Source of the DNA: a virus
IMG/VR virus record: IMGVR_UViG_3300025593_000028
Span: 1 to 64,000 of that record
Reading direction: 5' to 3' (one strand)
DNA length: 64,000 nucleotides
Positions 13,300 through 58,427 of the stretch are shown here, in pieces. Every line of letters begins with the position of its first letter. Positions within the stretch are counted from its first letter, which is position 1. The position numbers were made by a program, and so were the translations under genes. The notes under the pieces were generated by a model. The model was given only the letters and a program-made list of their open reading frames with translations. It had not been told where the DNA came from and made no database searches.

Positions 13300-13311
13300 G
13301 CCCAGATCCTA

Positions 13312-13815
13312 TCAGGTCTTCGCGCCCTCGGCGAAGTACAGCAGTACCTCCACGTGTTCGTCCGTCAGCCCCTCGTACAGCTCGGGTTCCACGATCGCGT
13401 AGCGGCCCCCGACCTGGTCGTCGAGCACCCAGCCGGTGCTCTCGAGCACGCCTCGTTCCCAGTCGGCGTCGTCGTCGACGAAGGCCCAGTCCCGGCCGTC
13501 CGCGTAGTCGACGATCGCCGTCAGCTTGCTGTGCTCCCGCATACCGCGAGTCGGGCTGAAGCGCCCCGACCGCTGCCACTCGATCACGGGGAGCTCGGGC
13601 AGCCCCACCATCGGGGCGATGTGCTCGTTCGCCATTCCTTCCCAGGTCGTGCACCACGCGATCTCGAACGCCTCGCCCAGCCGCTCGAGCCGCTCCGCGG
13701 TCCCCCGTGGGACGCAGATCCTGAACCCCTCGGCATAGAACTCCTGGCCGGTGCCGCTGTTCGGAACGACGGTGTTCAGCACCCCGTCCACGTCGAGCGC
13801 CAGCAGCGGCTTCAC
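13312..13815 (-). CDS. HAD-family phosphatase (Swiss-army-knife RNA-repair-like HAD)
   Basis: LLALDVDGVLN, WCTTW, WAFVDDD, GLTDEH. Confidence 0.8.
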   Translation of the reverse strand: MKPLLALDVDGVLNTVVPNSGTGQEFYAEGFRICVPRGTAERLERLGEAFEIAWCTTWEGMANEHIAPMVGLPELPVIEWQRSGRFSPTRGMREHSKLTAIVDYADGRDWAFVDDDADWERGVLESTGWVLDDQVGGRYAIVEPELYEGLTDEHVEVLLYFAEGAKT

Positions 13816-18712: not shown

Positions 18713-19216
18713 ATGCCGGGCGAGGACGTGTCCAAGCAGCTCAGCCCCGCTCAGCGGGGAGCGGTGGCGCTCGAGGTCGCCGGCCGCAAGACGGACGAGA
18801 TCGCCGAGACCCTGGACGTCTCGGCGGGGACGCTGCGCAAGTGGAGGAAGCTGCCGCTCTACCAAGTCGCGCTCGACGAGCAGGGTCGGCGCGCGAGCGA
18901 GGCGCTACAGCCCATCATCACGGAGGTGCACAACGAGCTCGCCCAGGGTGTGCGCGAGGCCTTCAAGACGCTGGTGCGCAACATGGACTCGGACGACGAG
19001 AAGATCAGCAACGACGCCGCGATCGCGCTCGCGAAGTACGCAGACTTCCTCATCGAGAAACCTGGGAGGCGGGGCGGCGACGGCGACGGCGGCGGGGCAG
19101 CGGCCGCGCAGGCCGTCGTGAAGGTGTCGATCTCGGAGGACGTGGCCCGCGAGGGCTCGCCGTTCCACGTGGACGCAGAGGACGTAGAGGTGGAGGACGC
19201 AGAGGTCGTCGAGTGA
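18713..19216 (+). CDS. terS: terminase small subunit (N-terminal HTH)
   Basis: HTH EIAETLDVSAGTLRKW; immediately precedes terL; TATGAT 6 nt upstream of ATG. Confidence 0.7.
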   Translation: MPGEDVSKQLSPAQRGAVALEVAGRKTDEIAETLDVSAGTLRKWRKLPLYQVALDEQGRRASEALQPIITEVHNELAQGVREAFKTLVRNMDSDDEKISNDAAIALAKYADFLIEKPGRRGGDGDGGGAAAAQAVVKVSISEDVAREGSPFHVDAEDVEVEDAEVVE

Positions 19217-20601
19217 CGCGAGAGCTCGAGATCCCGATCGACCCGGCGCACGCCGCCGAGGTGCAGGGCGACCCGGAGAAAGCGCGCGAGCTGGCGCTCT
19301 GCATGACGAGCTTCCGCAAGTTCCTCTACCACTGGAGGTTCATCGACCTCGAGACGGGGAAGATCAGGATCCTCGGCGAGGAGGTGTGGTCGGGCCAGGA
19401 GCAGGTGATCGAAGCGATGGAGCACTGCCCGCGCTTCTACAACCTCAAGGCGAGGAAGCTCGGGGTCACGACGCTGGCCTGCGCGTTCGACGGTTGGAGG
19501 GTGCGGTTCGGCCCCCCGAACGGCCGCACGCACCTCTTCTCCCGTCGGGAAGACGCGGCCAAGGAGCTGCTCGACCAGGTCCACTACGGGCTCAAGAACC
19601 TGCCCGACTGGATGCGGCTCCCCGCGAAGGGCACCGCATACCAGGTCAAATACAACGCGGGCCCCGACGACGTCCGCACGCTGAAGAGCTACCCCGCGTC
19701 AGAAGAGACCGCGGTCGAGTCCAACTGCATCCACGGTCACGTGGACGAGTGGGCGCGGATGAAGAACCCAGAAGCGGTCTGGCAGGCCATCGAGCCGTCG
19801 ATGGCGGGGACCTGCCACCTCATCACGACCGGCCGAGGGCCGGAGAACTTCACGGCCAAATTCTGGCGCAGGTGCGAAGCAGAGGAAACCGAGTTCGTGC
19901 CGATCTTCGTCTCGGCCCTGAACCGCCCGGACAGGGACGCACACTGGCTCGAGATCAAACGCGCCGGCATGACGGAGCAGGCCTTCCGCCAGGAGTTCCC
20001 GCTCGACGCCGAGGACGCGATGTTCGCCGGCGGCGAGCTCGTCTTCCAGGGCCGCGACGTGGAAGCGGCTGGGAACGGGCCCGGCCCGACGGCACCGGAG
20101 GACAGGCACCGCTACGTCAAGTCTTGGGACATCGGCCGGCACAAGGACGCGGCGGTGGGCGTGGTGATCGACACGAGCGTGGAGCCCGCGCAGGTCGTCG
20201 AGTACGTGCGCCTGCGGGGCGTGCCCTACCCGAGCCTCCAGGCCAGGATCGAGCGCGTGCACAACAAGTACCCGGGCGTGACGATCGTCGAGCAGAACGG
20301 CCCCGGCGAGGCCGTGTTCGAGAACCTAGACATCCGCGAAGAGGAGAAGGAGCTCTTCAAGACGACCCAGCAGTCGAAGGCCCGGATCATCGAGGGCTTG
20401 CAGCTCGCGCTCGAGGGCAAAGCGATCCAGTGGTCAGCTGCGTCCTGGCCGCAGCTCGACGCGGAGGTCCGCACCTACCAGCTGCCCGACAAGGGGATCG
20501 TGCAGGACTCTGTGATGGCGCTCGCGATCGGCGTCTCGTCGATCAACGTCGCGCTCTCCTCTCGCACGGGACGCGTCGGGAAGATCGTCCGCTGGAGCTA
20601 G
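19213..20601 (+). CDS. terL: terminase large subunit
   Basis: LKARKLGVTT Walker A, HVDEWA Walker B, FRQEFP, WDIG...D and QDSVMALA RNaseH-like nuclease motifs. Confidence 0.92.
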   Translation: MTRELEIPIDPAHAAEVQGDPEKARELALCMTSFRKFLYHWRFIDLETGKIRILGEEVWSGQEQVIEAMEHCPRFYNLKARKLGVTTLACAFDGWRVRFGPPNGRTHLFSRREDAAKELLDQVHYGLKNLPDWMRLPAKGTAYQVKYNAGPDDVRTLKSYPASEETAVESNCIHGHVDEWARMKNPEAVWQAIEPSMAGTCHLITTGRGPENFTAKFWRRCEAEETEFVPIFVSALNRPDRDAHWLEIKRAGMTEQAFRQEFPLDAEDAMFAGGELVFQGRDVEAAGNGPGPTAPEDRHRYVKSWDIGRHKDAAVGVVIDTSVEPAQVVEYVRLRGVPYPSLQARIERVHNKYPGVTIVEQNGPGEAVFENLDIREEEKELFKTTQQSKARIIEGLQLALEGKAIQWSAASWPQLDAEVRTYQLPDKGIVQDSVMALAIGVSSINVALSSRTGRVGKIVRWS

Positions 20602-20603
20602 TC

Positions 20604-20631
20604 GGCCCCCGCCTGCCGAGCGACGGGGGCC
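20604..20631 (+). terminator. GC hairpin after terL
   Basis: GGCCCCCG...CGGGGGCC inverted repeat. Confidence 0.45.
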
Positions 20632-20671
20632 GGTCAGATCCTACCCATGGGTATGATCTGATCGACCGAAG

Positions 20672-21162
<491 letters not shown>

Positions 21163-21166
<4 letters not shown>

Positions 21167-21276
21167 CGACGTTCCTCGAGATACTCGGCATCGTCCTCGG
21201 GCTCGGGGTCCTAGGCGCGATCGTCTTCGGGGCGGTCAAGATCCTGCGGGCGCTCTCGCAGTGGGGTGAAATGTAG
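21163..21276 (+). CDS. small membrane protein
   Basis: VTTFLEILGIVLGLGVLGAIVFGAV; GTGA overlap. Confidence 0.55.
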
Positions 21277-21304
21277 CTCGAGCACCTGGTACGATCCACC
21301 CCAT

Positions 21305-21379
21305 AGCGGGGTGGAGCAGTCCGGTCAGCTCGTCAGGCTCATAACCTGGAGGTCGCGGGTTCGAATCCCGCTCCCGCTA
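21305..21379 (+). tRNA. tRNA-Met(CAT), initiator-like
   Basis: AGCGGGG/TCCCGCT acceptor, GAGC/GCTC D stem (A11-U24), TCAGG-CTCATAA-CCTGG, GCGGG-TTCGAAT-CCCGC; TG-G-TACGAT promoter upstream. Confidence 0.9.
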
Positions 21380-21380
21380 C

Positions 21381-22485
21381 TCACGCAGACGACTGAGCAC
21401 CGGCGTGCTCGAGCTCGGCGAGCCTCTCCATCTCGTCCTGCTCCCTGGGCGACACTCGGTCCGCCGCTCCTTCTACCAGCACCGTGACGTTGGCCACGGC
21501 TTCGGCACGTGCCAGCGGGGCACCATCGCGCACCCGGATGGCGACCTCGATCGGCACCTGCACGGTGAGCGTGTCGATCTTCATCGCGACGGGCCGAGCA
21601 GCATCGAGAGTCGAGACTCGCGCAGGCGCTCGGCGCGCTCGCGTAGGAGCCGTGCTTCTAGCTCGTACGCAGACGCGAGGCCACCGGCCCTCCAGCGCCG
21701 TACCAGTGCGCGCCTGGGCAGCTCATCGCGTATCGCCGAGTGCCAGTTGGCTACGAGCGTGGCGTGCCTCGCGTCGGCCTCCACGCGCTTCTCCTCGGCG
21801 ATCATCTCTCGGAGCCCCTCCATCTGACTACACGGTATCAGGCGCGACGTCTGCGCGTCGGACGACGCGCGTCTTGCGCTTCTCAGCGTCGTACTCTACG
21901 AGGTACTCACCCGGCTCCAGCGGCGGCTCGACCTCGAGCTCTAGCCACCTGCGCAGGTCGGTGCCGACCACGCAGTCCTTCTCTGGGTCTCCGCGCTCGG
22001 AGCAGGCCTCCGGGTGCTCGACGGCCCAGCCCTCCTCGGCGATCGTCAGGAAGTGGTCCCCCTCGGGCGGCTCATAGAGGAGCTCGGCCGCCTCTTCGAG
22101 TACCCCCGGCTCGGGCCGGGAGCCGCCGCGCACCTCGGCGAGCGCCGCGAGCACAAGCTCGCGTGCTAGCTCGGCCCTCTTATAGATCGTCTCGTCAGCC
22201 ACGCCGGTACGGGTTCTCGAGGTCCCAGGGCTCGGAGCCGGGGTCCGGCACCACGTTACGGTGCGAGTCGGGCAGGACGCACAACGTGCTCAGCCGGTCG
22301 GTGCCGGCCTCGCGCAGCGTCAGCACGACCGAAGCGACTCCGGCCTCGTCCACCTCTTCTACCCGGGCCAAGATCGGGGCTTCGTCGAGCCAGTCGCCCG
22401 GCCTGAGGTACCTCGCCTCGACCGTCTGCGAGCCCCTGACGAATATGCGCTGGAGCGGCGGCGCGTAGGGTACGGCCTCTTGCAT
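21381..22485 (-). other. four minus-strand hypothetical ORFs (21381-21584, 21581-21823, 21828-22202, 22195-22485) embedded in the late arm
   Basis: Coupled ORFs; CCTGATACCGT promoter at ~21833-21843. Confidence 0.55.
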
Positions 22486-22650
22486 GTATCCGATCCTACC
22501 CGGCGCCTGGTAAGATCTCGGGCCGTGCAGATAGCGACCGAGGAGGTGAGCGCCCACGGCCTGAGCAGCGCCCGCGCCTGAGCGAAGTCACGTAGCGAGT
22601 GGGCAGAGCAGGACGATGACGCAAGCAACCAAGAGGAGTTGATCTATCAC

Positions 22651-23244
22651 ATGCGCTTCCGAGCGCTAGCAGCATCCGCGGCCATCATAGCCGCGGCCTT
22701 GTTCGCGCTGTTCGCACCGCAGTCAGCGGCGTCGGGCAGCGTAAAGTGCGGCACCCAGACTGCCGCGAAGTTCTCGAAGTGGTCCGGCCGGGTCTGGGAC
22801 CCCGACCGCTGGAGGCGCGGAGCACCGCCACAAGAGACGGTGCGCGCGCAGCGCCGCAAGCTGTCGTGCGCGAGGGGCCCCGGCCACCTACGTGCGATGC
22901 GCGGCCGCTGGAGGCGGGACAAGTCTGCCTTCTACGGCAAGCGCAAGCACTGCCGCTCCGGCCCGGTGTTCTCGGGCGGGGTGTCCGTGTTCGGCGGCCA
23001 GACCACGGCAGACGGCGGGTCGGCCTCCCGGGCCGGGATCGCGCTCAGGTCGAGCGCGACGATGGACCGCATGTTCCTGGTCAAGACGGGCGGCCACTCG
23101 GCCTACCTGAGGCAGATCGACTGGGGCCCAGCAGAAAGCACTGGGCGCGCCATCGACATCACGTTCGCGGGGGCCGCCAAGCTCGGCGGCGTGACCACGG
23201 ACGACCCCGGCACCGCGCGGCTCGTCCCCTCGAGCTGCATGTAG
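22651..23244 (+). CDS. secreted protein with C-terminal RlpA/expansin-like double-psi beta-barrel
   Basis: Signal peptide; TTADG...IDWGP...GRAIDITFAGAAKLG resembles RlpA DRGP...RxIDLS. Confidence 0.65.
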   Translation: MRFRALAASAAIIAAALFALFAPQSAASGSVKCGTQTAAKFSKWSGRVWDPDRWRRGAPPQETVRAQRRKLSCARGPGHLRAMRGRWRRDKSAFYGKRKHCRSGPVFSGGVSVFGGQTTADGGSASRAGIALRSSATMDRMFLVKTGGHSAYLRQIDWGPAESTGRAIDITFAGAAKLGGVTTDDPGTARLVPSSCM

Positions 23245-23259
23245 TATCTAAGACGCAAA

Positions 23260-23335
23260 GAGAGCACGCAGGCCCGGCTCTTCGTGACGCCTGCTACACC
23301 GCCGGGAAGCCCGGATACCGGCGGTCCTAGCTTTC
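23260..23335 (+). ncRNA. candidate three-way-junction ncRNA
   Basis: P1 GAGAGC/GCTTTC, P2 GCAGGC/GCCTGC, P3 ACCGCCGG/CCGGCGGT; TAGTAT element upstream at 23242. Confidence 0.35.
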
Positions 23336-23341
23336 GCTCGT

Positions 23342-23413
23342 TGCGGGGTGGTGTAGCTGGCAGCACGTCTGGCTCTGGACCAGGAGGCGTGGGTTCGAAC
23401 CCTGCCCCCGCAG
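23342..23413 (+). tRNA. tRNA-Gln(CTG)
   Basis: TGCGGGG/CCCCGCA acceptor (U1-A72, G73), TCTGG-CTCTGGA-CCAGG, GGTTCGAAC T loop. Confidence 0.9.
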
Positions 23414-23433
23414 CTCTTTGATACGATGCAGGC

Positions 23434-23506
23434 GGGGCCGCCAGGTACGGCCGGCGAGGCCTAACCAGCCGAGTCGGTGACGCGGGTTCGATTCCCGCCG
23501 GCTCCA
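23434..23506 (+). ncRNA. minimal tmRNA-like RNA (tRNA-like domain only)
   Basis: GGGGCCG/CGGCTCC-A with G3.U70; no D stem; 3' end GACGCGGGTTCGATTCCCGCCGGCTCCA typical of ssrA; TG-A-TACGAT 6 nt upstream. Confidence 0.7.
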
Positions 23507-23540
23507 TCTTCTAGCAGCGCCGAGCAGTAGGGTCAGGACC

Positions 23541-23741
23541 GTGATCGCTATAGTCATATGGATCGCGGCCTGGTTCATCGGGGGCGCGCACTCGTTCGAC
23601 GTCGGAGACAGCTGGTTCTGGTTCCTCGTCGCGGCGTCCGTGCTCTCTGTGTCGCAAGCACTCGCGACGTCGAAGATCGGCCAGACCACGGTGCTCGTGA
23701 ACAACCCACCACAGAACACGGGCGTAGGCGCAGAAGAGTAA
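23541..23741 (+). CDS. small 2-TM membrane protein
   Basis: Hydrophobic segments. Confidence 0.6.
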   Translation: MIAIVIWIAAWFIGGAHSFDVGDSWFWFLVAASVLSVSQALATSKIGQTTVLVNNPPQNTGVGAEE

Positions 23742-23785
23742 GATCGCCTAGGTATGGGCGATCAGATCATCTACGCGGCGCGTGA

Positions 23786-23962
23786 GTGAAGCGGTGGCTG
23801 CTCATACGCGACGTGGTCCTGTTCTTCGCCGGCCTCGGCGGCGTGGCGCACGAGACGCTGCTGACGGGCGCTGGGATCGAACGCCCGACGCTCTTGCTGC
23901 TCTTCGCGGCGATGATGGGGCTGCCGATGTTCCTGCGGGCGGACGAGAGCCGCAAGAAGTGA
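23786..23962 (+). CDS. small 2-TM membrane protein (holin-like)
   Basis: VKRWLLIRDVVLFFAGLGGVAHETL...LLLLFAAMMGLP...RKK; not in the ORF track (<60 aa). Confidence 0.6.
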   Translation: MKRWLLIRDVVLFFAGLGGVAHETLLTGAGIERPTLLLLFAAMMGLPMFLRADESRKK

Positions 23963-24029
23963 TAAGCGACTGGCGCTACAGCATCGCCTACTGCTCAGCG
24001 GTAGCCGCTCTGGTGCTCGGGGTCGGGCT

Positions 24030-24674
24030 GTGGCCGCACTGAAGACCGTGGGCAGGTTCCTCGGGGGCTACCGGGCCTCGGCCGCGTTCATCGGATACGT
24101 GGCGCTCTGCGCGGTCGTCATCGCCGTCGGGCTCCGCGGCGAGGACACGCGCGGGATCGCGAGCCGCGACTGCACGTCGAACCCGCGCAGCCAGACGTGC
24201 ATAGAAGCCAAGGACGAATCTGACCGAGCGCGGTCCGTCAAGAGCACCTGCATCCAGTTCAAGAAGGTGGGCTACCCCTGCCCCAGGCCGCGCAGCCGCG
24301 TGGCCCGCGCCGAGAACCGCCAGCAACAGCACAGCGGATCGAGCACGCCGCAGTCCCAGCCGCAGCCCCCGCCGAGCACCGAGCCGCAGCCTCAGGCCCC
24401 GGACACCGGGGCCGTGGGCAAGCACGGAAACGCGCCCAAGCACCCCGGAAGCAGCAAGAACCCCGTCCCGGAAAGCACCGCGACTGAGCCGAGCCCCAGC
24501 GCACCCCCGTCCGTCTCAGAAGCCCCGCCCGTAGAAGTGCCGCAGCACGCACCCCCCGCCGAAGTAGAACCAGGAGGGCAGGCGGCACCGCCGGTAGAAC
24601 TGCCATCACTCCCGGTGCTCGAAGCGGGAGTGTGCGTAGAAGCACTCGGTCGCGTGAAAGTAGGATGTGACTGA
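24030..24674 (+). CDS. membrane-anchored Pro-rich protein
   Basis: N-terminal TM, Cys pairs, Pro/Gln-rich tail. Confidence 0.6.
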   Translation: MAALKTVGRFLGGYRASAAFIGYVALCAVVIAVGLRGEDTRGIASRDCTSNPRSQTCIEAKDESDRARSVKSTCIQFKKVGYPCPRPRSRVARAENRQQQHSGSSTPQSQPQPPPSTEPQPQAPDTGAVGKHGNAPKHPGSSKNPVPESTATEPSPSAPPSVSEAPPVEVPQHAPPAEVEPGGQAAPPVELPSLPVLEAGVCVEALGRVKVGCD

Positions 24675-25465
24675 TGACGATAGCACTGCCCATCCGAGAG
24701 CGCGTCTCGAAGATGCTCGTGGAGCGGCACGATGCATGCGGAGGAGAGGGGTGCGACGGCTGCGTCGAGGGCCTGGTCCCGCACGAGCACGTAGCGAAGC
24801 GCAGCTTCTCTCGAGACAAGCGGATCCAGCTCGCTAAAGAAGGCAAGGCCGTGCCGGTCCGGCAGGGGGGCAAGATCGTGAACGGTCGCTACCCGATAGA
24901 GACCGCCGGAGACCTCGAGAACGCCGTCCACGCGTTCGGCCGTAGCGGCGGAGACCCGTCCGTGAAAGCGCTGATCGTCAGGAGGGCGCACGCGCTCAAG
25001 CGGCCCGACCTGATCCCGGGCGGCTGGAAGAAGTCGAGCTCCGTCAAGAAGGTCGAGACTTTCTCGAAGCCGGGCACCGCAGACGTCACGCCGCAGGACC
25101 TGAAGCACCTACGCCCGCTGCTCGAGTACTACCGCAAGAAGGCCCACCCCTTCGGAGCCTGCAAGCGAGACCAGATGAAACACGGCCTGTCAGAGGACCA
25201 CGCGAACCGCAGGTGCGCCGTCATCAAGGACCTGATCGAAGGCAACACGCACTGGAGGCACGGCGGGGGCGGCGTGCACAAGGCGATCGACTGGCGCGGC
25301 AGGTCCAAGGTAGTCAAGTCGAGCGGAGACTGGACCCCAGAGGTCGTAGAAGCCCTTGATCGAGTAGCCGACTGCCTCGACTACGACCAGGTCGGCAAGC
25401 GGCGCAAGCGCGCGACCGGCGCGATGAGGCGCCTGGTCGGTGCCGGCGGCGCGCACGACTGCTAG
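24674..25465 (+). CDS. hypothetical phage protein (possibly head-associated)
   Basis: RYPIETAGDLENAVHAFGR and HPFGAC...RRCAVIKD motifs. Confidence 0.6.
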   Translation: MTIALPIRERVSKMLVERHDACGGEGCDGCVEGLVPHEHVAKRSFSRDKRIQLAKEGKAVPVRQGGKIVNGRYPIETAGDLENAVHAFGRSGGDPSVKALIVRRAHALKRPDLIPGGWKKSSSVKKVETFSKPGTADVTPQDLKHLRPLLEYYRKKAHPFGACKRDQMKHGLSEDHANRRCAVIKDLIEGNTHWRHGGGGVHKAIDWRGRSKVVKSSGDWTPEVVEALDRVADCLDYDQVGKRRKRATGAMRRLVGAGGAHDC

Positions 25466-25498
25466 CCTCTACCGAGCAGACCTGATACAGTCCGCTCC

Positions 25499-26527
25499 GT
25501 GGCGGAGGTAGAAAGGGACTACTGGGCGGGGTTCTCGGACTTTGTGCTGGGAGAGACGTGGGCCGGGGGGCCCAGCCCGAACCTGAAGCTCGTGGGCGCG
25601 CTCGCCGACGAGCTCGAGCCGCCCACCAGAGAACACAGGACGTGGCTCGCCTGCTGCTACGCCGCGATCTACAATACGTCCGGGACGGCGGCCCTCTATC
25701 GGCACTGGCCCGACCCGAGCGACGTGATCGCCGACCCCGATCCGGCCGGTTGGATCGAGGAGAACAGGCCCGGGATGCCGGTGCACTCGAACCGGCGCAG
25801 GACGCACGGCTCGCCGCGCAAGATGGCAGAGGGCCTCGAATCTCTCGCTCGGTTCTCGATGTGCGACTACTTCGAACCCGGGGACGACTACGACATGCTC
25901 TGGGACAACGTCCACGAGGTCTCGCACGTGGGCCGCTACTTCGGGATCAAGCTCGCCGGCACCCTGCGCGAGCTCGGCCTCACGGAGGCCGCGCAGTACG
26001 ACATCAGGGGCAACGGAGCGAAGAACGGGCGCCGCACGCTCGCGCTGCTCTACCCCGACGAGGCCGACTCGCTCGACATGAAGTCCGGCGGGAACTCGAG
26101 GCGCGCCGTGCTCCTAGCAGAGGACCGCGCCGCCGAGGTCAAGTCCTGGCTCGAAGACGAGCGCGGCCTCGCGGTAGACTGGTTCCAGCTCGAGGCGCTG
26201 CTTTGCGAGTTCAACCAGATGGTCAAGGGGAACCGCTACGCGGGCAAGACTTCGGACGCCGACTACGACGTGCTGCTCAAGGCCGAGTCCCACTTCGGGG
26301 CCGAGCCGTTCGCGCCGGTCCGCCGCGCGCGAGAGCGGCTGCTCCCGCTCGAGCTCGTCGAGACGAGCAAGCGCGAGAGGCTTCTCCCGGTCTACCGAGA
26401 CTGCGGGTACGTCTGGATCGACGGTTGGCACGACGACGGTGCCACCGACGACCCAGCGGACCCCGCGGTAAGGTCGGACAAGACCCTCAAGCAGGTGCCC
26501 ATCACTACGCCGTGGAGAGGAGACTGA
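25499..26527 (+). CDS. amino acid:DNA transferase-like (aGPT-PPlase/ADDT, HhH-glycosylase fold) DNA hypermodification enzyme
   Basis: HVGRYFGIKL HhH-like segment; FQLEALLCEF...RYAGK resembles the ExxLCE..K/Y.G signature; adjacent P-loop kinase. Confidence 0.7.
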   Translation: MAEVERDYWAGFSDFVLGETWAGGPSPNLKLVGALADELEPPTREHRTWLACCYAAIYNTSGTAALYRHWPDPSDVIADPDPAGWIEENRPGMPVHSNRRRTHGSPRKMAEGLESLARFSMCDYFEPGDDYDMLWDNVHEVSHVGRYFGIKLAGTLRELGLTEAAQYDIRGNGAKNGRRTLALLYPDEADSLDMKSGGNSRRAVLLAEDRAAEVKSWLEDERGLAVDWFQLEALLCEFNQMVKGNRYAGKTSDADYDVLLKAESHFGAEPFAPVRRARERLLPLELVETSKRERLLPVYRDCGYVWIDGWHDDGATDDPADPAVRSDKTLKQVPITTPWRGD

Positions 26528-27015: not shown

Positions 27016-27401
27016 GGACCGGGACCATCTACGGCCTCTGCGACCCCGACGGGACGCTCAGGTACGTGGGGAAGACGGTGCAGCGACCCAGGGAACGGCG
27101 CAGCGGCCTCGTCCGCGAGGCCGTTCAGCGTGGTCGTAGCTGCCCGGTGCACGGGTGGATCCGCGACCTCGTCGAAGCCGGGTCCGGACCCGCGCTCTGG
27201 CTCCTAGAAGAGGGCGTCCCGGTAGGCGACTTGGACGACCGCGAGAAGGCGTGGATCGACGCACTACGCAGCGACGGGATCGAGCTGCTTAACGTGTTCG
27301 CGGGCGGCAACGGCGGCAAGCCGATGCCCAAGCGCAAGAGAGACAGACTGTCGGCGGTCGCCATCGGGCGGCCCCGGCTCGAGAACGGGAGGTTCGCGTG
27401 A
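27012..27401 (+). CDS. GIY-YIG endonuclease
   Basis: TIYGLCDP...RYVGKT...R...E...LLN. Confidence 0.85.
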   Translation: MRTGTIYGLCDPDGTLRYVGKTVQRPRERRSGLVREAVQRGRSCPVHGWIRDLVEAGSGPALWLLEEGVPVGDLDDREKAWIDALRSDGIELLNVFAGGNGGKPMPKRKRDRLSAVAIGRPRLENGRFA

Positions 27402-28012
27402 TCCTCAACCTCAGGGGGCCCAGCGGCTCCGGCAAGAGCTACCCCGGGTTCAGGCTCCTAGACAACTACGGCCCGCCGGTGGAGGAGATCCGGAGCACCG
27501 ACTACTTCGGGAGGAAGCGCCCCAAGCTGATCGCGCAGATCCTGCCGGGCGGGCTCTGCCTAGCCGGCAGGTACACGATGAAGAAGAGCACGGTCGGCGA
27601 CGGCGTCGGGTACTCCGGAGGAGTGGACGGATTCTTCCCGGTAGCAGAACTGCAGGACATGCTGACGATGCTCAGCGACCGCTTCCCACACATGCTCGTC
27701 GAGAGCCTGATGATCAGCGGCACGTACCAGCGCTGGGCCGACTGGGCCGACGAACGGGACGCCGCGGGACAGCCCGTCACCTTCGCGACCCTCGACACGC
27801 CGCTCGAGACCTGCCTGCGCAGGGTGCGTGAGCGAAACGGCGGCCGCGAGGTCAAGGACGACACGATCGCTAAGCACCGCAAGCAGGTGCACAGGTGCGC
27901 GAGCCGCCTCCGCGAGGAGGGCGGGCACAGATCGTTGATCCTAGACCACACGCGCTCCTACGACCAGGTCGAGCACCTGCTGCTCGAGGGCGGCTGGGAC
28001 CCGACACAGTAG
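27398..28012 (+). CDS. P-loop nucleotide kinase (5-hmdU-DNA-kinase-like by context)
   Basis: ILNLRGPSGSGKS, GRY...GGVD, LDTPLETCLRRVRERNG lid. Confidence 0.75.
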   Translation: MILNLRGPSGSGKSYPGFRLLDNYGPPVEEIRSTDYFGRKRPKLIAQILPGGLCLAGRYTMKKSTVGDGVGYSGGVDGFFPVAELQDMLTMLSDRFPHMLVESLMISGTYQRWADWADERDAAGQPVTFATLDTPLETCLRRVRERNGGREVKDDTIAKHRKQVHRCASRLREEGGHRSLILDHTRSYDQVEHLLLEGGWDPTQ

Positions 28013-57447: not shown

Positions 57448-58038
57448 TCAGAAGCCGCGCTGCCTCCTGCGGATCTTCTCTGCCAGCTTCGGTTCAGACA
57501 CGTGAGTGTAGATCATAGTGGTGTCTACGCTCTTGTGGCCGAGCAGGTTCTGGATCTCGCGGATGTTGAGGTCTCCCTCGCTCATCAGCTCGGTCGCGTA
57601 CGTGTGCCTGAGCATGTGCGGGTGGCACGGGCCTTCGATGCCGGCCCGCCGCCCGTAGCGCTGCATCATCTGCCAGCAGTAGTGCGGGGACACGGGGCTC
57701 CCCTTCAGCGTCACGAAGAGAATCTTGCTTCCGTCCGCGTATTTCTCTCGCTCTCGCTTCCAGCGTTCTACGAGCTCGAGCGTGCCGTCCTCGATCTGGA
57801 CGTAGCGCTCCACCTTGTTCTTGGCGATGGCCGCGCGGATGTGGATGCGCCGCTCGCGCACCTGGACGTCGCGGACGTTCAGGCGGCAGAGCTCGCCCAC
57901 TCGCAGCCCTGCGCGGTACATCAGCTCGAGCATCGCGCGGTTCCTGATGCCGGTCGGCCGCCGCATGTTCGGCACCGCCAGCAGAGCACGCACGTCCTCG
58001 TCCGAGAAGATCTTCGGAAGCTCTCGTCCCTTCTTCAT
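57448..58038 (-). CDS. small tyrosine recombinase (XerD/FimB-like catalytic domain only)
   Basis: R (GLRVGEL), K, HMLRH, LLGH, Y (TTMIYTH); ~196 aa, no arm-binding domain. Confidence 0.93.
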   Translation of the reverse strand: MKKGRELPKIFSDEDVRALLAVPNMRRPTGIRNRAMLELMYRAGLRVGELCRLNVRDVQVRERRIHIRAAIAKNKVERYVQIEDGTLELVERWKREREKYADGSKILFVTLKGSPVSPHYCWQMMQRYGRRAGIEGPCHPHMLRHTYATELMSEGDLNIREIQNLLGHKSVDTTMIYTHVSEPKLAEKIRRRQRGF

Positions 58039-58220: not shown

Positions 58221-58244
58221 CCTAGAATCCGGCGTCTAGCGGAG

Positions 58245-58319
58245 TGCCCGCCCCGGGACTCGAACCCGGAACCTCTCCCTTCTGAGGGGAGCGCCTCTGC
58301 CGGATTGGGCTAGACGGGC
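58245..58319 (-). tRNA. tRNA-Leu(CAG), short variable loop
   Basis: GCCCGTC/GGCGGGC-A, CTCCC-CTCAGAA-GGGAG, CCGGG-TTCGAGT-CCCGG. Confidence 0.85.
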
Positions 58320-58346
58320 AAGGAGATCCTACGGATCGCGCCCCAG

Positions 58347-58427
58347 TGCGCGGGGACGGAATCGAACCGCCACAGCCAGAGACGCCTGGTTTACAGCCAG
58401 GGGGGCTCGCCCATGCCCAGCCCGCGC
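58347..58427 (-). tRNA. tRNA-Tyr(GTA)
   Basis: GCGCGGG/CCCGCGC-A, CCTGG-CTGTAAA-CCAGG, 13-nt variable region, GGCGG-TTCGATT-CCGTC. Confidence 0.85.

Follow-up and report, generated by a model that had tools for sequence, protein, structure and literature searches.

Positions 23434-23506 (+) of the virus record IMGVR_UViG_3300025593_000028 carry what we conclude is a real RNA gene, a tmRNA derivative of 73 nt that consists of the tRNA-like domain (TLD) only. On balance we favour the reading that this phage gene encodes a mimic of the tmRNA tRNA-like domain, which would compete with the host tmRNA for SmpB. A TLD-only phage tmRNA is already known as a kind from phage DS6A, and the copy described here is a divergent new member. 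The record is a complete virus genome of 95,288 bp with direct terminal repeats and a G+C content of ~67%, recovered from a wetland metagenome; the window analysed here is its first 64 kb (64,000 nt). Ten tRNA genes were found in the genome with RF00005 and ARAGORN. The element sits in a 296-nt gap with a + strand CDS on either side, 22639-23244 (GC3 0.89) upstream and 23541-23741 (66 codons, GC3 0.81) downstream, the latter starting 34 nt past the element. A tRNA-Gln(CUG) gene at 23342-23414 (+), scoring 55.7 bits, lies in the same gap, 19 nt upstream of the element.

The element opens with the acceptor 5' strand GGGGCCG (23434-23440), which pairs 7/7 with positions 23499-23505 of the 3' strand; the latter, CGGCTCC followed by A73, spans 23499-23506. 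G3 at 23436 opposite U70 at 23503, together with A73 at 23506, provides the AlaRS identity set on a 7-bp acceptor stem. The acceptor is followed by a stemless, unpaired D-loop analogue, CCAGGTACGG (23441-23450), in which GG is kept and the conserved UCGA is missing; ACGG stands in its place, and this part is aligned to RF00023 with low posterior probability. The place of tmRNA helix 2 is taken by a closed helix at 23451-23477, built from CCGGC/GTCGG, a tandem G.A/A.G (23456-7 with 23471-2) and GGC/GCC, and capped by the 7-nt loop CTAACCA (23461-23467). Whereas the tandem G.A lies at the base of helix 2 in tmRNA, it lies five pairs up the helix in the element. A TGAC linker (23478-23481) leads into the T arm GCGGG-TTCGATT-CCCGC, and linker and arm together (23478-23498) match the tmRNA consensus GACGcGGGUUCGAuUCCCgC exactly; a GAC linker and a T arm with the GGUUCGAUUCC loop are also what is seen at ssrA 3' ends. 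There is no D stem and no anticodon arm, and A73 is followed by TCT, CCA not being encoded. The initial annotation, made from the letters alone, had described the acceptor stem, G3:U70, A73, the missing D stem, the helix, the T arm and the uncoded CCA, and was correct on all of them. Its structure corresponds to the centroid, in which the helix 23451-23477 is formed. The minimum-energy fold is an alternative structure, and thermodynamic folding is not significant alone (z = -1.3).

The element is a tmRNA derivative, as judged from the failure of the tRNA model, a 28-mer found only in tmRNA genes and a CCAGGU shared with Burkholderiaceae tmRNAs. No match to RF00005 was obtained at the element at E<=10 in a search that recovered all ten phage tRNAs, and ARAGORN at default settings called no tRNA there; the ordinary tRNA that had been named as a finding against a TLD-only reading is thus not seen. 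The tmRNA model RF00023, by comparison, aligns positions 23434-23509 end to end (model positions 1-374) with 31 nt of the element replacing 324 middle positions, which supports the earlier proposal of a TLD-only tmRNA without a tag ORF. The score is 41.2 bits, below the gathering score of 47, and the resume codon, tag ORF and pseudoknots of a full molecule are all lacking. It is no discriminator alone, since plain phage tRNA-Ala genes that share the acceptor stem reach 40-44 bits. The mitochondrial model RF02544 matched nowhere in the genome at E<=10. No other tmRNA piece was found in the complete 95-kb genome with RF00023 or ARAGORN, which speaks against the element being the half or remnant of a longer or two-piece ssrA, the other outcome that the initial annotation had held against its own reading.

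The last 28 nt of the element, comprising the GAC linker, the T arm and the acceptor 3' strand, are identical to many bacterial ssrA 3' ends, including those of Burkholderiales and some Actinomycetota. This 28-mer was found in at least 120 bacterial genomes. Among the matches listed, it lay within an ARAGORN-called tmRNA gene in 106 of 120 cases, the other 14 being near a locus edge; at assessable bacterial loci among these matches, it was therefore in tmRNA genes at 106/106 and in tRNA genes at none. The CCAGGT that follows the acceptor strand is also present in Burkholderiaceae tmRNAs, at 5' ends reading GGGGCCGACCAGGTTTCGAC, and the 5' part of the element (GGGGCCG..CCAGGU) resembles these tmRNAs accordingly. 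In contrast to bacterial tmRNA, the element has no mRNA-like domain, resume codon, pseudoknots or UCGA, and its CCA is not encoded. As a separate observation, ~10 of the 120 bacterial copies of the 28-mer among the matches listed have no following CCA; these could be prophage minis or att-site remnants.

The closest known relative in kind is "Mycobacterium phage DS6A (TLD only)", listed by Hudson, Lau and Williams (PMC4131195). According to passages in PMC4131195 and PMC11915505 that cite Mao et al. 2009, a similar TLD-only molecule strongly inhibits tmRNA, perhaps through titration of SmpB. The action first suggested for our element, alanylation followed by titration of SmpB or by tag-less work on stalled ribosomes, agrees with the one put forward in these papers for the DS6A RNA. 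The DS6A element (JN698994 28478-28560; tmRNA Website tmID 11587) is unannotated in its record and scores 43.2 bits on RF00023, close to the 41.2 bits of our element. Both are phage-encoded and share an identical acceptor (GGGGCCG/CGGCUCC) with G3:U70 and A73, a tmRNA-type T arm, an uncoded CCA and a short closed helix that replaces the pseudoknots and the tag ORF. A tyrosine recombinase and an RtcB-like ligase (DS6A gp76) are likewise encoded by both phages. The two phages are unrelated. The DS6A element is 80 nt long rather than 73 nt, and it has a UCGAC junction and an inner GAAAACC-GCACGC-GGUAC hairpin, which are common to 88 aligned viral minis. Our element has ACGGC at the place of UCGAC, a helix interrupted by GA/GA and a CUAACCA loop.

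Pattern scans of IMG/VR viral contigs returned at least 91 distinct minis of 74-92 nt, all with G3:U70, and CCA was not encoded in 64 of 91 among the matches listed. The 88 aligned sequences show rich covariation in the acceptor stem, helix 2 and the T arm. We define the DS6A type as a molecule of 74-92 nt with the acceptor, xGGxxUCGAC, a covarying 6-bp helix, an inner UAARNCC-hairpin-GGA, GGAC and the T arm. The element fits this definition in architecture and length class, while UCGAC and the inner motif are absent, and it thus falls outside the type. It does share the features of a TLD-only tmRNA, namely a phage-borne closed TLD with alanine identity, the lack of a tag frame and a genome in which no further tmRNA piece was found. 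A covariance model of DS6A-type minis (R1) gave the element 43 bits with the centre poorly aligned; this model cannot separate minis from tRNA-Ala, because tRNA-Ala also gets 39 bits. In the viral contigs, the inner motif of DS6A-type minis reads GUAAAGCC-GCAxGC-GGA. It resembles what we take to be the 3' part of E. coli tmRNA pseudoknot 1 (GUAAAAAGCCGCA). If this likeness holds, the minis may keep a remnant of PK1.

Reduction to the TLD is also seen in organelles, in the CDS-less tmRNAs of jakobid and oomycete mitochondria (RF02544) and in two ~65-bp Mallomonadaceae plastid genes (PMC11915505). However, these work with an organelle-targeted SmpB as a resident system and not as the competitor brought by an invader. 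The same 2025 tmRNA database paper added CDS-less plastid and mitochondrial tmRNAs and records that 2-codon tags exist (PMC11915505).

How unusual is a mini without UCGA? A fixed-acceptor scan without the UCGAC requirement yielded ~19 non-tRNA minis, of which 13 had UCGAC, two ACGAC and four no such motif. Variants lacking UCGAC are therefore a recurrent minority. A scan of viral contigs with the pattern of our variant found a sole look-alike, in IMGVR_UViG_3300044960_000107 (L017/L043, hereafter L017), an unrelated 54-kb phage. This element of 90 nt scores 45.2 bits. It is identical to ours over the first 8 nt and the last 28 nt, its D-loop analogue is similar (CAGAGGUGCG against CCAGGUACGG), UCGAC is missing, a single closed helix is present, and it adjoins a tRNA-Gln(CUG) gene as our element does. 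It differs in having a fully paired 16-pair helix with an 11-nt loop and no stop codon in the hairpin, and in lying directly between tRNA-Met and tRNA-Gln(CUG) without spacers. The place of helix 2 is thus taken by a covarying helix in the 88 phage minis and by a different but paired helix in L017. None of the seven proteins around our element (18841-26527) matched the 6.4 kb of the L017 phage that was compared.

Further searches for relatives returned little. Among 50,697 phage records none was nearly identical to the region, blastn with the element alone gave T-arm matches only, and the variant pattern scan of metagenome contigs gave just one unrelated, tRNA-Leu-like match. No relative was found for the upstream 201-aa protein. 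The terminase search found one relative, L041, at 51% identity; that record is 45% complete, and no TLD was found in the part compared. To the terminases of cultured phages the identity is at most ~27%, and for this reason the terminase gives no clue to the host. The initial annotation had called for covarying homologues in related phages. They exist for the DS6A-type minis but not for the UCGA-less variant, since the searches turned up no near relative of either the phage or the element.

A promoter of its own very probably drives the element, with a predicted start at or next to G1 as for the tRNA genes of the phage, because the same -10 motif recurs at the same spacing before those genes. 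The extended -10 element TGATACGAT (23419-23427 (+)) ends 6 nt before G1, as first annotated, and proved to be a member of a recurrent genome motif, (CC)TGATACGATG, with further sites too; the 10-mer TGATACGATG is also found at genome positions 17765(-), 67829(-) and 86198(-). At tRNA-Pro, tRNA-Leu, tRNA-Thr, tRNA-Lys and the element, exactly 6 nt separate an upstream hexamer TA[CG][CG]AT from the mature 5' end; at tRNA-Met the distance is 9 nt. The exact 6-nt spacing is seen at 5 of 11 RNA genes, where 0.004 hits are expected (Poisson P ~7e-15). Counting both spacings, a -10-only hexamer, often with TGn, stands before six of the 11 RNA genes (five tRNA genes and the mini-tmRNA). Such sites lie upstream of RNA genes at 13306-13314(-), 21287-21295(+) and 23419-23427(+) in the window and upstream of tRNA-Leu at 58320-58335; those of tRNA-Lys and tRNA-Thr lie beyond the window, at genome 81631-81645 and 87776-87790. 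The element lacks a -35, and for that reason a generic scan for two-hexamer promoters gave no hit. Given a start at the mature 5' end, the transcripts would not need RNase P. At the other end, the trailer TCTT resembles the trailers of the phage tRNAs, which lack CCA in 10 of 10 cases and mostly continue with T or TC. No public RNA run contained the element region, the matching runs being two wetland DNA metagenomes, of which one is probably the source of the record, and the contigs of these two metagenomes showed no variants of the region.

We infer every biochemical step of the following route; the anatomy, the ancestry and the promoter motif are read directly from the nucleotides. From the recurrent -10-only promoter of the phage, transcription would begin at G1 or right beside it. 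The 3' end would be trimmed after A73 and CCA would be added by host enzymes, as is necessary for the ten CCA-less phage tRNAs. Since neither an SmpB gene nor a CCA-adding enzyme was found in the complete phage genome, maturation and any partner protein would have to come from the host. With the alanine identity set present, host AlaRS would charge the RNA, and the charged RNA would, in competition, draw SmpB and perhaps also EF-Tu and stalled ribosomes away from host tmRNA. The closed hairpin would occupy the place of the tmRNA pseudoknots and tag message. Because the mimic carries no message, there would be less trans-translation and ssrA tagging during infection. The initial annotation had read the 5'/3' pattern as the one bound by SmpB. 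With the conserved UCGA lost, binding is less safe to assume than that reading implies; the shift of the tandem G.A to a site five pairs above the helix base is a further reason why it is not assured.

Trans-translation is the chief route of ribosome rescue and quality control in bacteria, and phages rely on it or are harmed by it in various ways. A phage RNA copying just the SmpB- and AlaRS-binding end of tmRNA would be a compact and probably general way to tune this path. The UCGA-less example offers a natural way to ask which features of the TLD are essential to such mimics, and the case presents a mini-tmRNA driven, at the spacing seen for tRNA genes, by a promoter class of the phage itself. 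The gain is incremental, because the kind is already described and common in uncultivated phages.

A possible second copy of the element lies 264 nt upstream. There, an 18-nt direct repeat of the element's start is 15/18 identical, and GGGGCCGCCA occurs only twice in the window, in the element and at 23170 (0.32 expected). The 77-nt stretch 23170-23246 (+) aligns globally to the element with 52/72 identity, above all 8612 other genome windows. It falls in the 3' end (last 25 codons) of the CDS 22639-23244, whose stop codon lies where the RNA copy would end; a count by eye gives G or C at the third position in 24 of 24 codons of the stretch, and no TLD fold is obtained for it. We suggest that it may be an old tandem copy, now a decayed duplicate overprinted by the 3' end of the gene.

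Besides competition for SmpB, several other roles were weighed. The charged RNA might enter stalled ribosomes with SmpB and donate alanine, with release through the loop UAA or host factors, and thus rescue ribosomes without tagging. The alanine identity is perfectly kept, a UAA is present in the 7-nt loop, the inner loop of DS6A-type minis often begins with UAA or UAG, and CDS-less organellar tmRNAs and 2-codon tags are known (PMC11915505). We nevertheless consider this role unlikely: the UAA belongs to the 7-nt loop that closes a 10-pair helix, rather than to a single-stranded message, and in many DS6A-type minis the corresponding triplet is GAA, CAA or AAA. The L017 hairpin has no stop codon at all, and because the UAA is not conserved in this sole look-alike, we give no weight to the loop UAA that had been pointed out. 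It is similarly improbable that the element is a relic without a current function, either a decaying piece of ssrA captured from the host or a decayed tRNA-Ala. Its near-singleton status, the absence of the UCGA and inner motif of the main phage family, the score under the gathering threshold and the clearly decayed possible copy at 23170-23246 would all fit decay. Yet no flaw is seen in the acceptor stem, T arm or identity elements, the central helix closes, and a phage-type promoter at tRNA-gene spacing and a 3' trailer like those of functional tRNAs accompany the element. The tRNA shape could also act in cis, as a leader that helps to process or stabilise the downstream mRNA (genes from 23541), in keeping with the lack of a terminator in the 34 nt before the next gene and with the same promoter-tRNA-ORF layout at tRNA-Met. 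A leader would require neither G3:U70 and A73 nor 28/28 identity to ssrA, and the L017 element lies inside a tRNA cluster, which together make a cis role distinctly improbable. We give little credence to the idea that the UCGA-less form (the element, L017 and perhaps L028) constitutes a separate, SmpB-independent class of Ala-charged, promoter-proximal and RNase P-independent RNAs with a role outside trans-translation. If true, such RNAs might end stalled chains with alanine and no tag, serve as decoys for defence nucleases with which the host attacks tRNA or tmRNA (the phage carries RtcB), or supply activated alanine to the amino-acid:DNA transferase cassette 2 kb downstream.

The remaining explanations concern what kind of sequence this is rather than what its RNA does. 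As an attP, the element would be a phage copy of the host ssrA 3' end, used for integration into the tmRNA gene. The phage does encode a tyrosine recombinase, the 28-nt identity to many bacterial ssrA 3' ends would suit such a site, and tmRNA genes are described as common integration sites (Williams 2002, as cited in PMC11590407). However, the recombinase lies 34 kb off, has a frame of 226 aa and is flanked by tRNA-Leu and tRNA-Tyr; the identity stops at A73, whereas CCA follows in 110 of 120 bacterial copies among the matches listed; and a matching 5' strand and a promoter would be superfluous. For these reasons, the attP explanation is weak and very unlikely to be right. The same low credence attaches to an unusual decoding tRNA, D-armless, alanine-charged and with a long anticodon stem. 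The length of 73 nt and a 7-nt loop with U at the second position are compatible with it, and at an 80% threshold ARAGORN forces a tRNA-Gly(gcc) shape. But in that forced shape the D stem has 3 pairs and the anticodon stem is mismatched, RF00005 does not match, the loop has C where tRNAs have a purine, the 10-pair stem contains a tandem G.A, and the L017 loop is 11 nt. An amber suppressor was considered as well and rejected: CUA does occur in the loop, but at positions 1-3 and not 3-5. Hardly credible, finally, is a full-length tmRNA, either in one piece at 23170-23506 with a 20-residue tag ending APAAL, or permuted and in two pieces using 23582-23600. ARAGORN does call the 337-nt one-piece form, and tmRNA_permuted gives a weak match of 27.8 bits. 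The call is an artefact that arises because the element's start is repeated at 23170: its 5' end lies within a CDS of GC3 0.89 that has G or C at the third position of each of its last 24 codons, it swallows the 55.7-bit tRNA-Gln, from which the 'tag' is read, and the covariance model prefers the 73-nt form. For the permuted form, the downstream 5' candidate pairs 5/7 and lies inside the CDS 23541-23741. A mimic of the tmRNA tRNA-like domain that competes for SmpB remains the reading we prefer.

Several genes of the phage deserve mention beside the element. The tyrosine recombinase at 57496-58005(-) is a strong match (155.6 bits) and adjoins tRNA-Leu (58244-58319) and tRNA-Tyr (58346-58427). 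Its open frame of just 226 aa appears too short for a usual phage integrase, and its role may be integration or inversion. An RtcB-like RNA ligase with a 451-aa frame is encoded beyond the window at genome 72202-73401(-). RtcB was absent from 1.3 Mb of flanks at the 153 loci of the viral pattern scans, which are mostly mini-tmRNA and tRNA-Ala loci, and no general link between RtcB and mini-tmRNAs is therefore shown. Downstream of the element, at a distance of 2-4 kb, 25499-26527 and 27398-28012 encode an amino-acid:DNA transferase (PF18724) and a 5-hmdU DNA kinase (PF18748), and the phage probably hypermodifies its thymidines. Within the gap itself, 23283-23303 and 23347-23367 form a 21-nt inverted repeat of 81% complementarity, which pairs the spacer upstream of tRNA-Gln with the acceptor and D-arm region of that tRNA and may reflect chance or a precursor structure.
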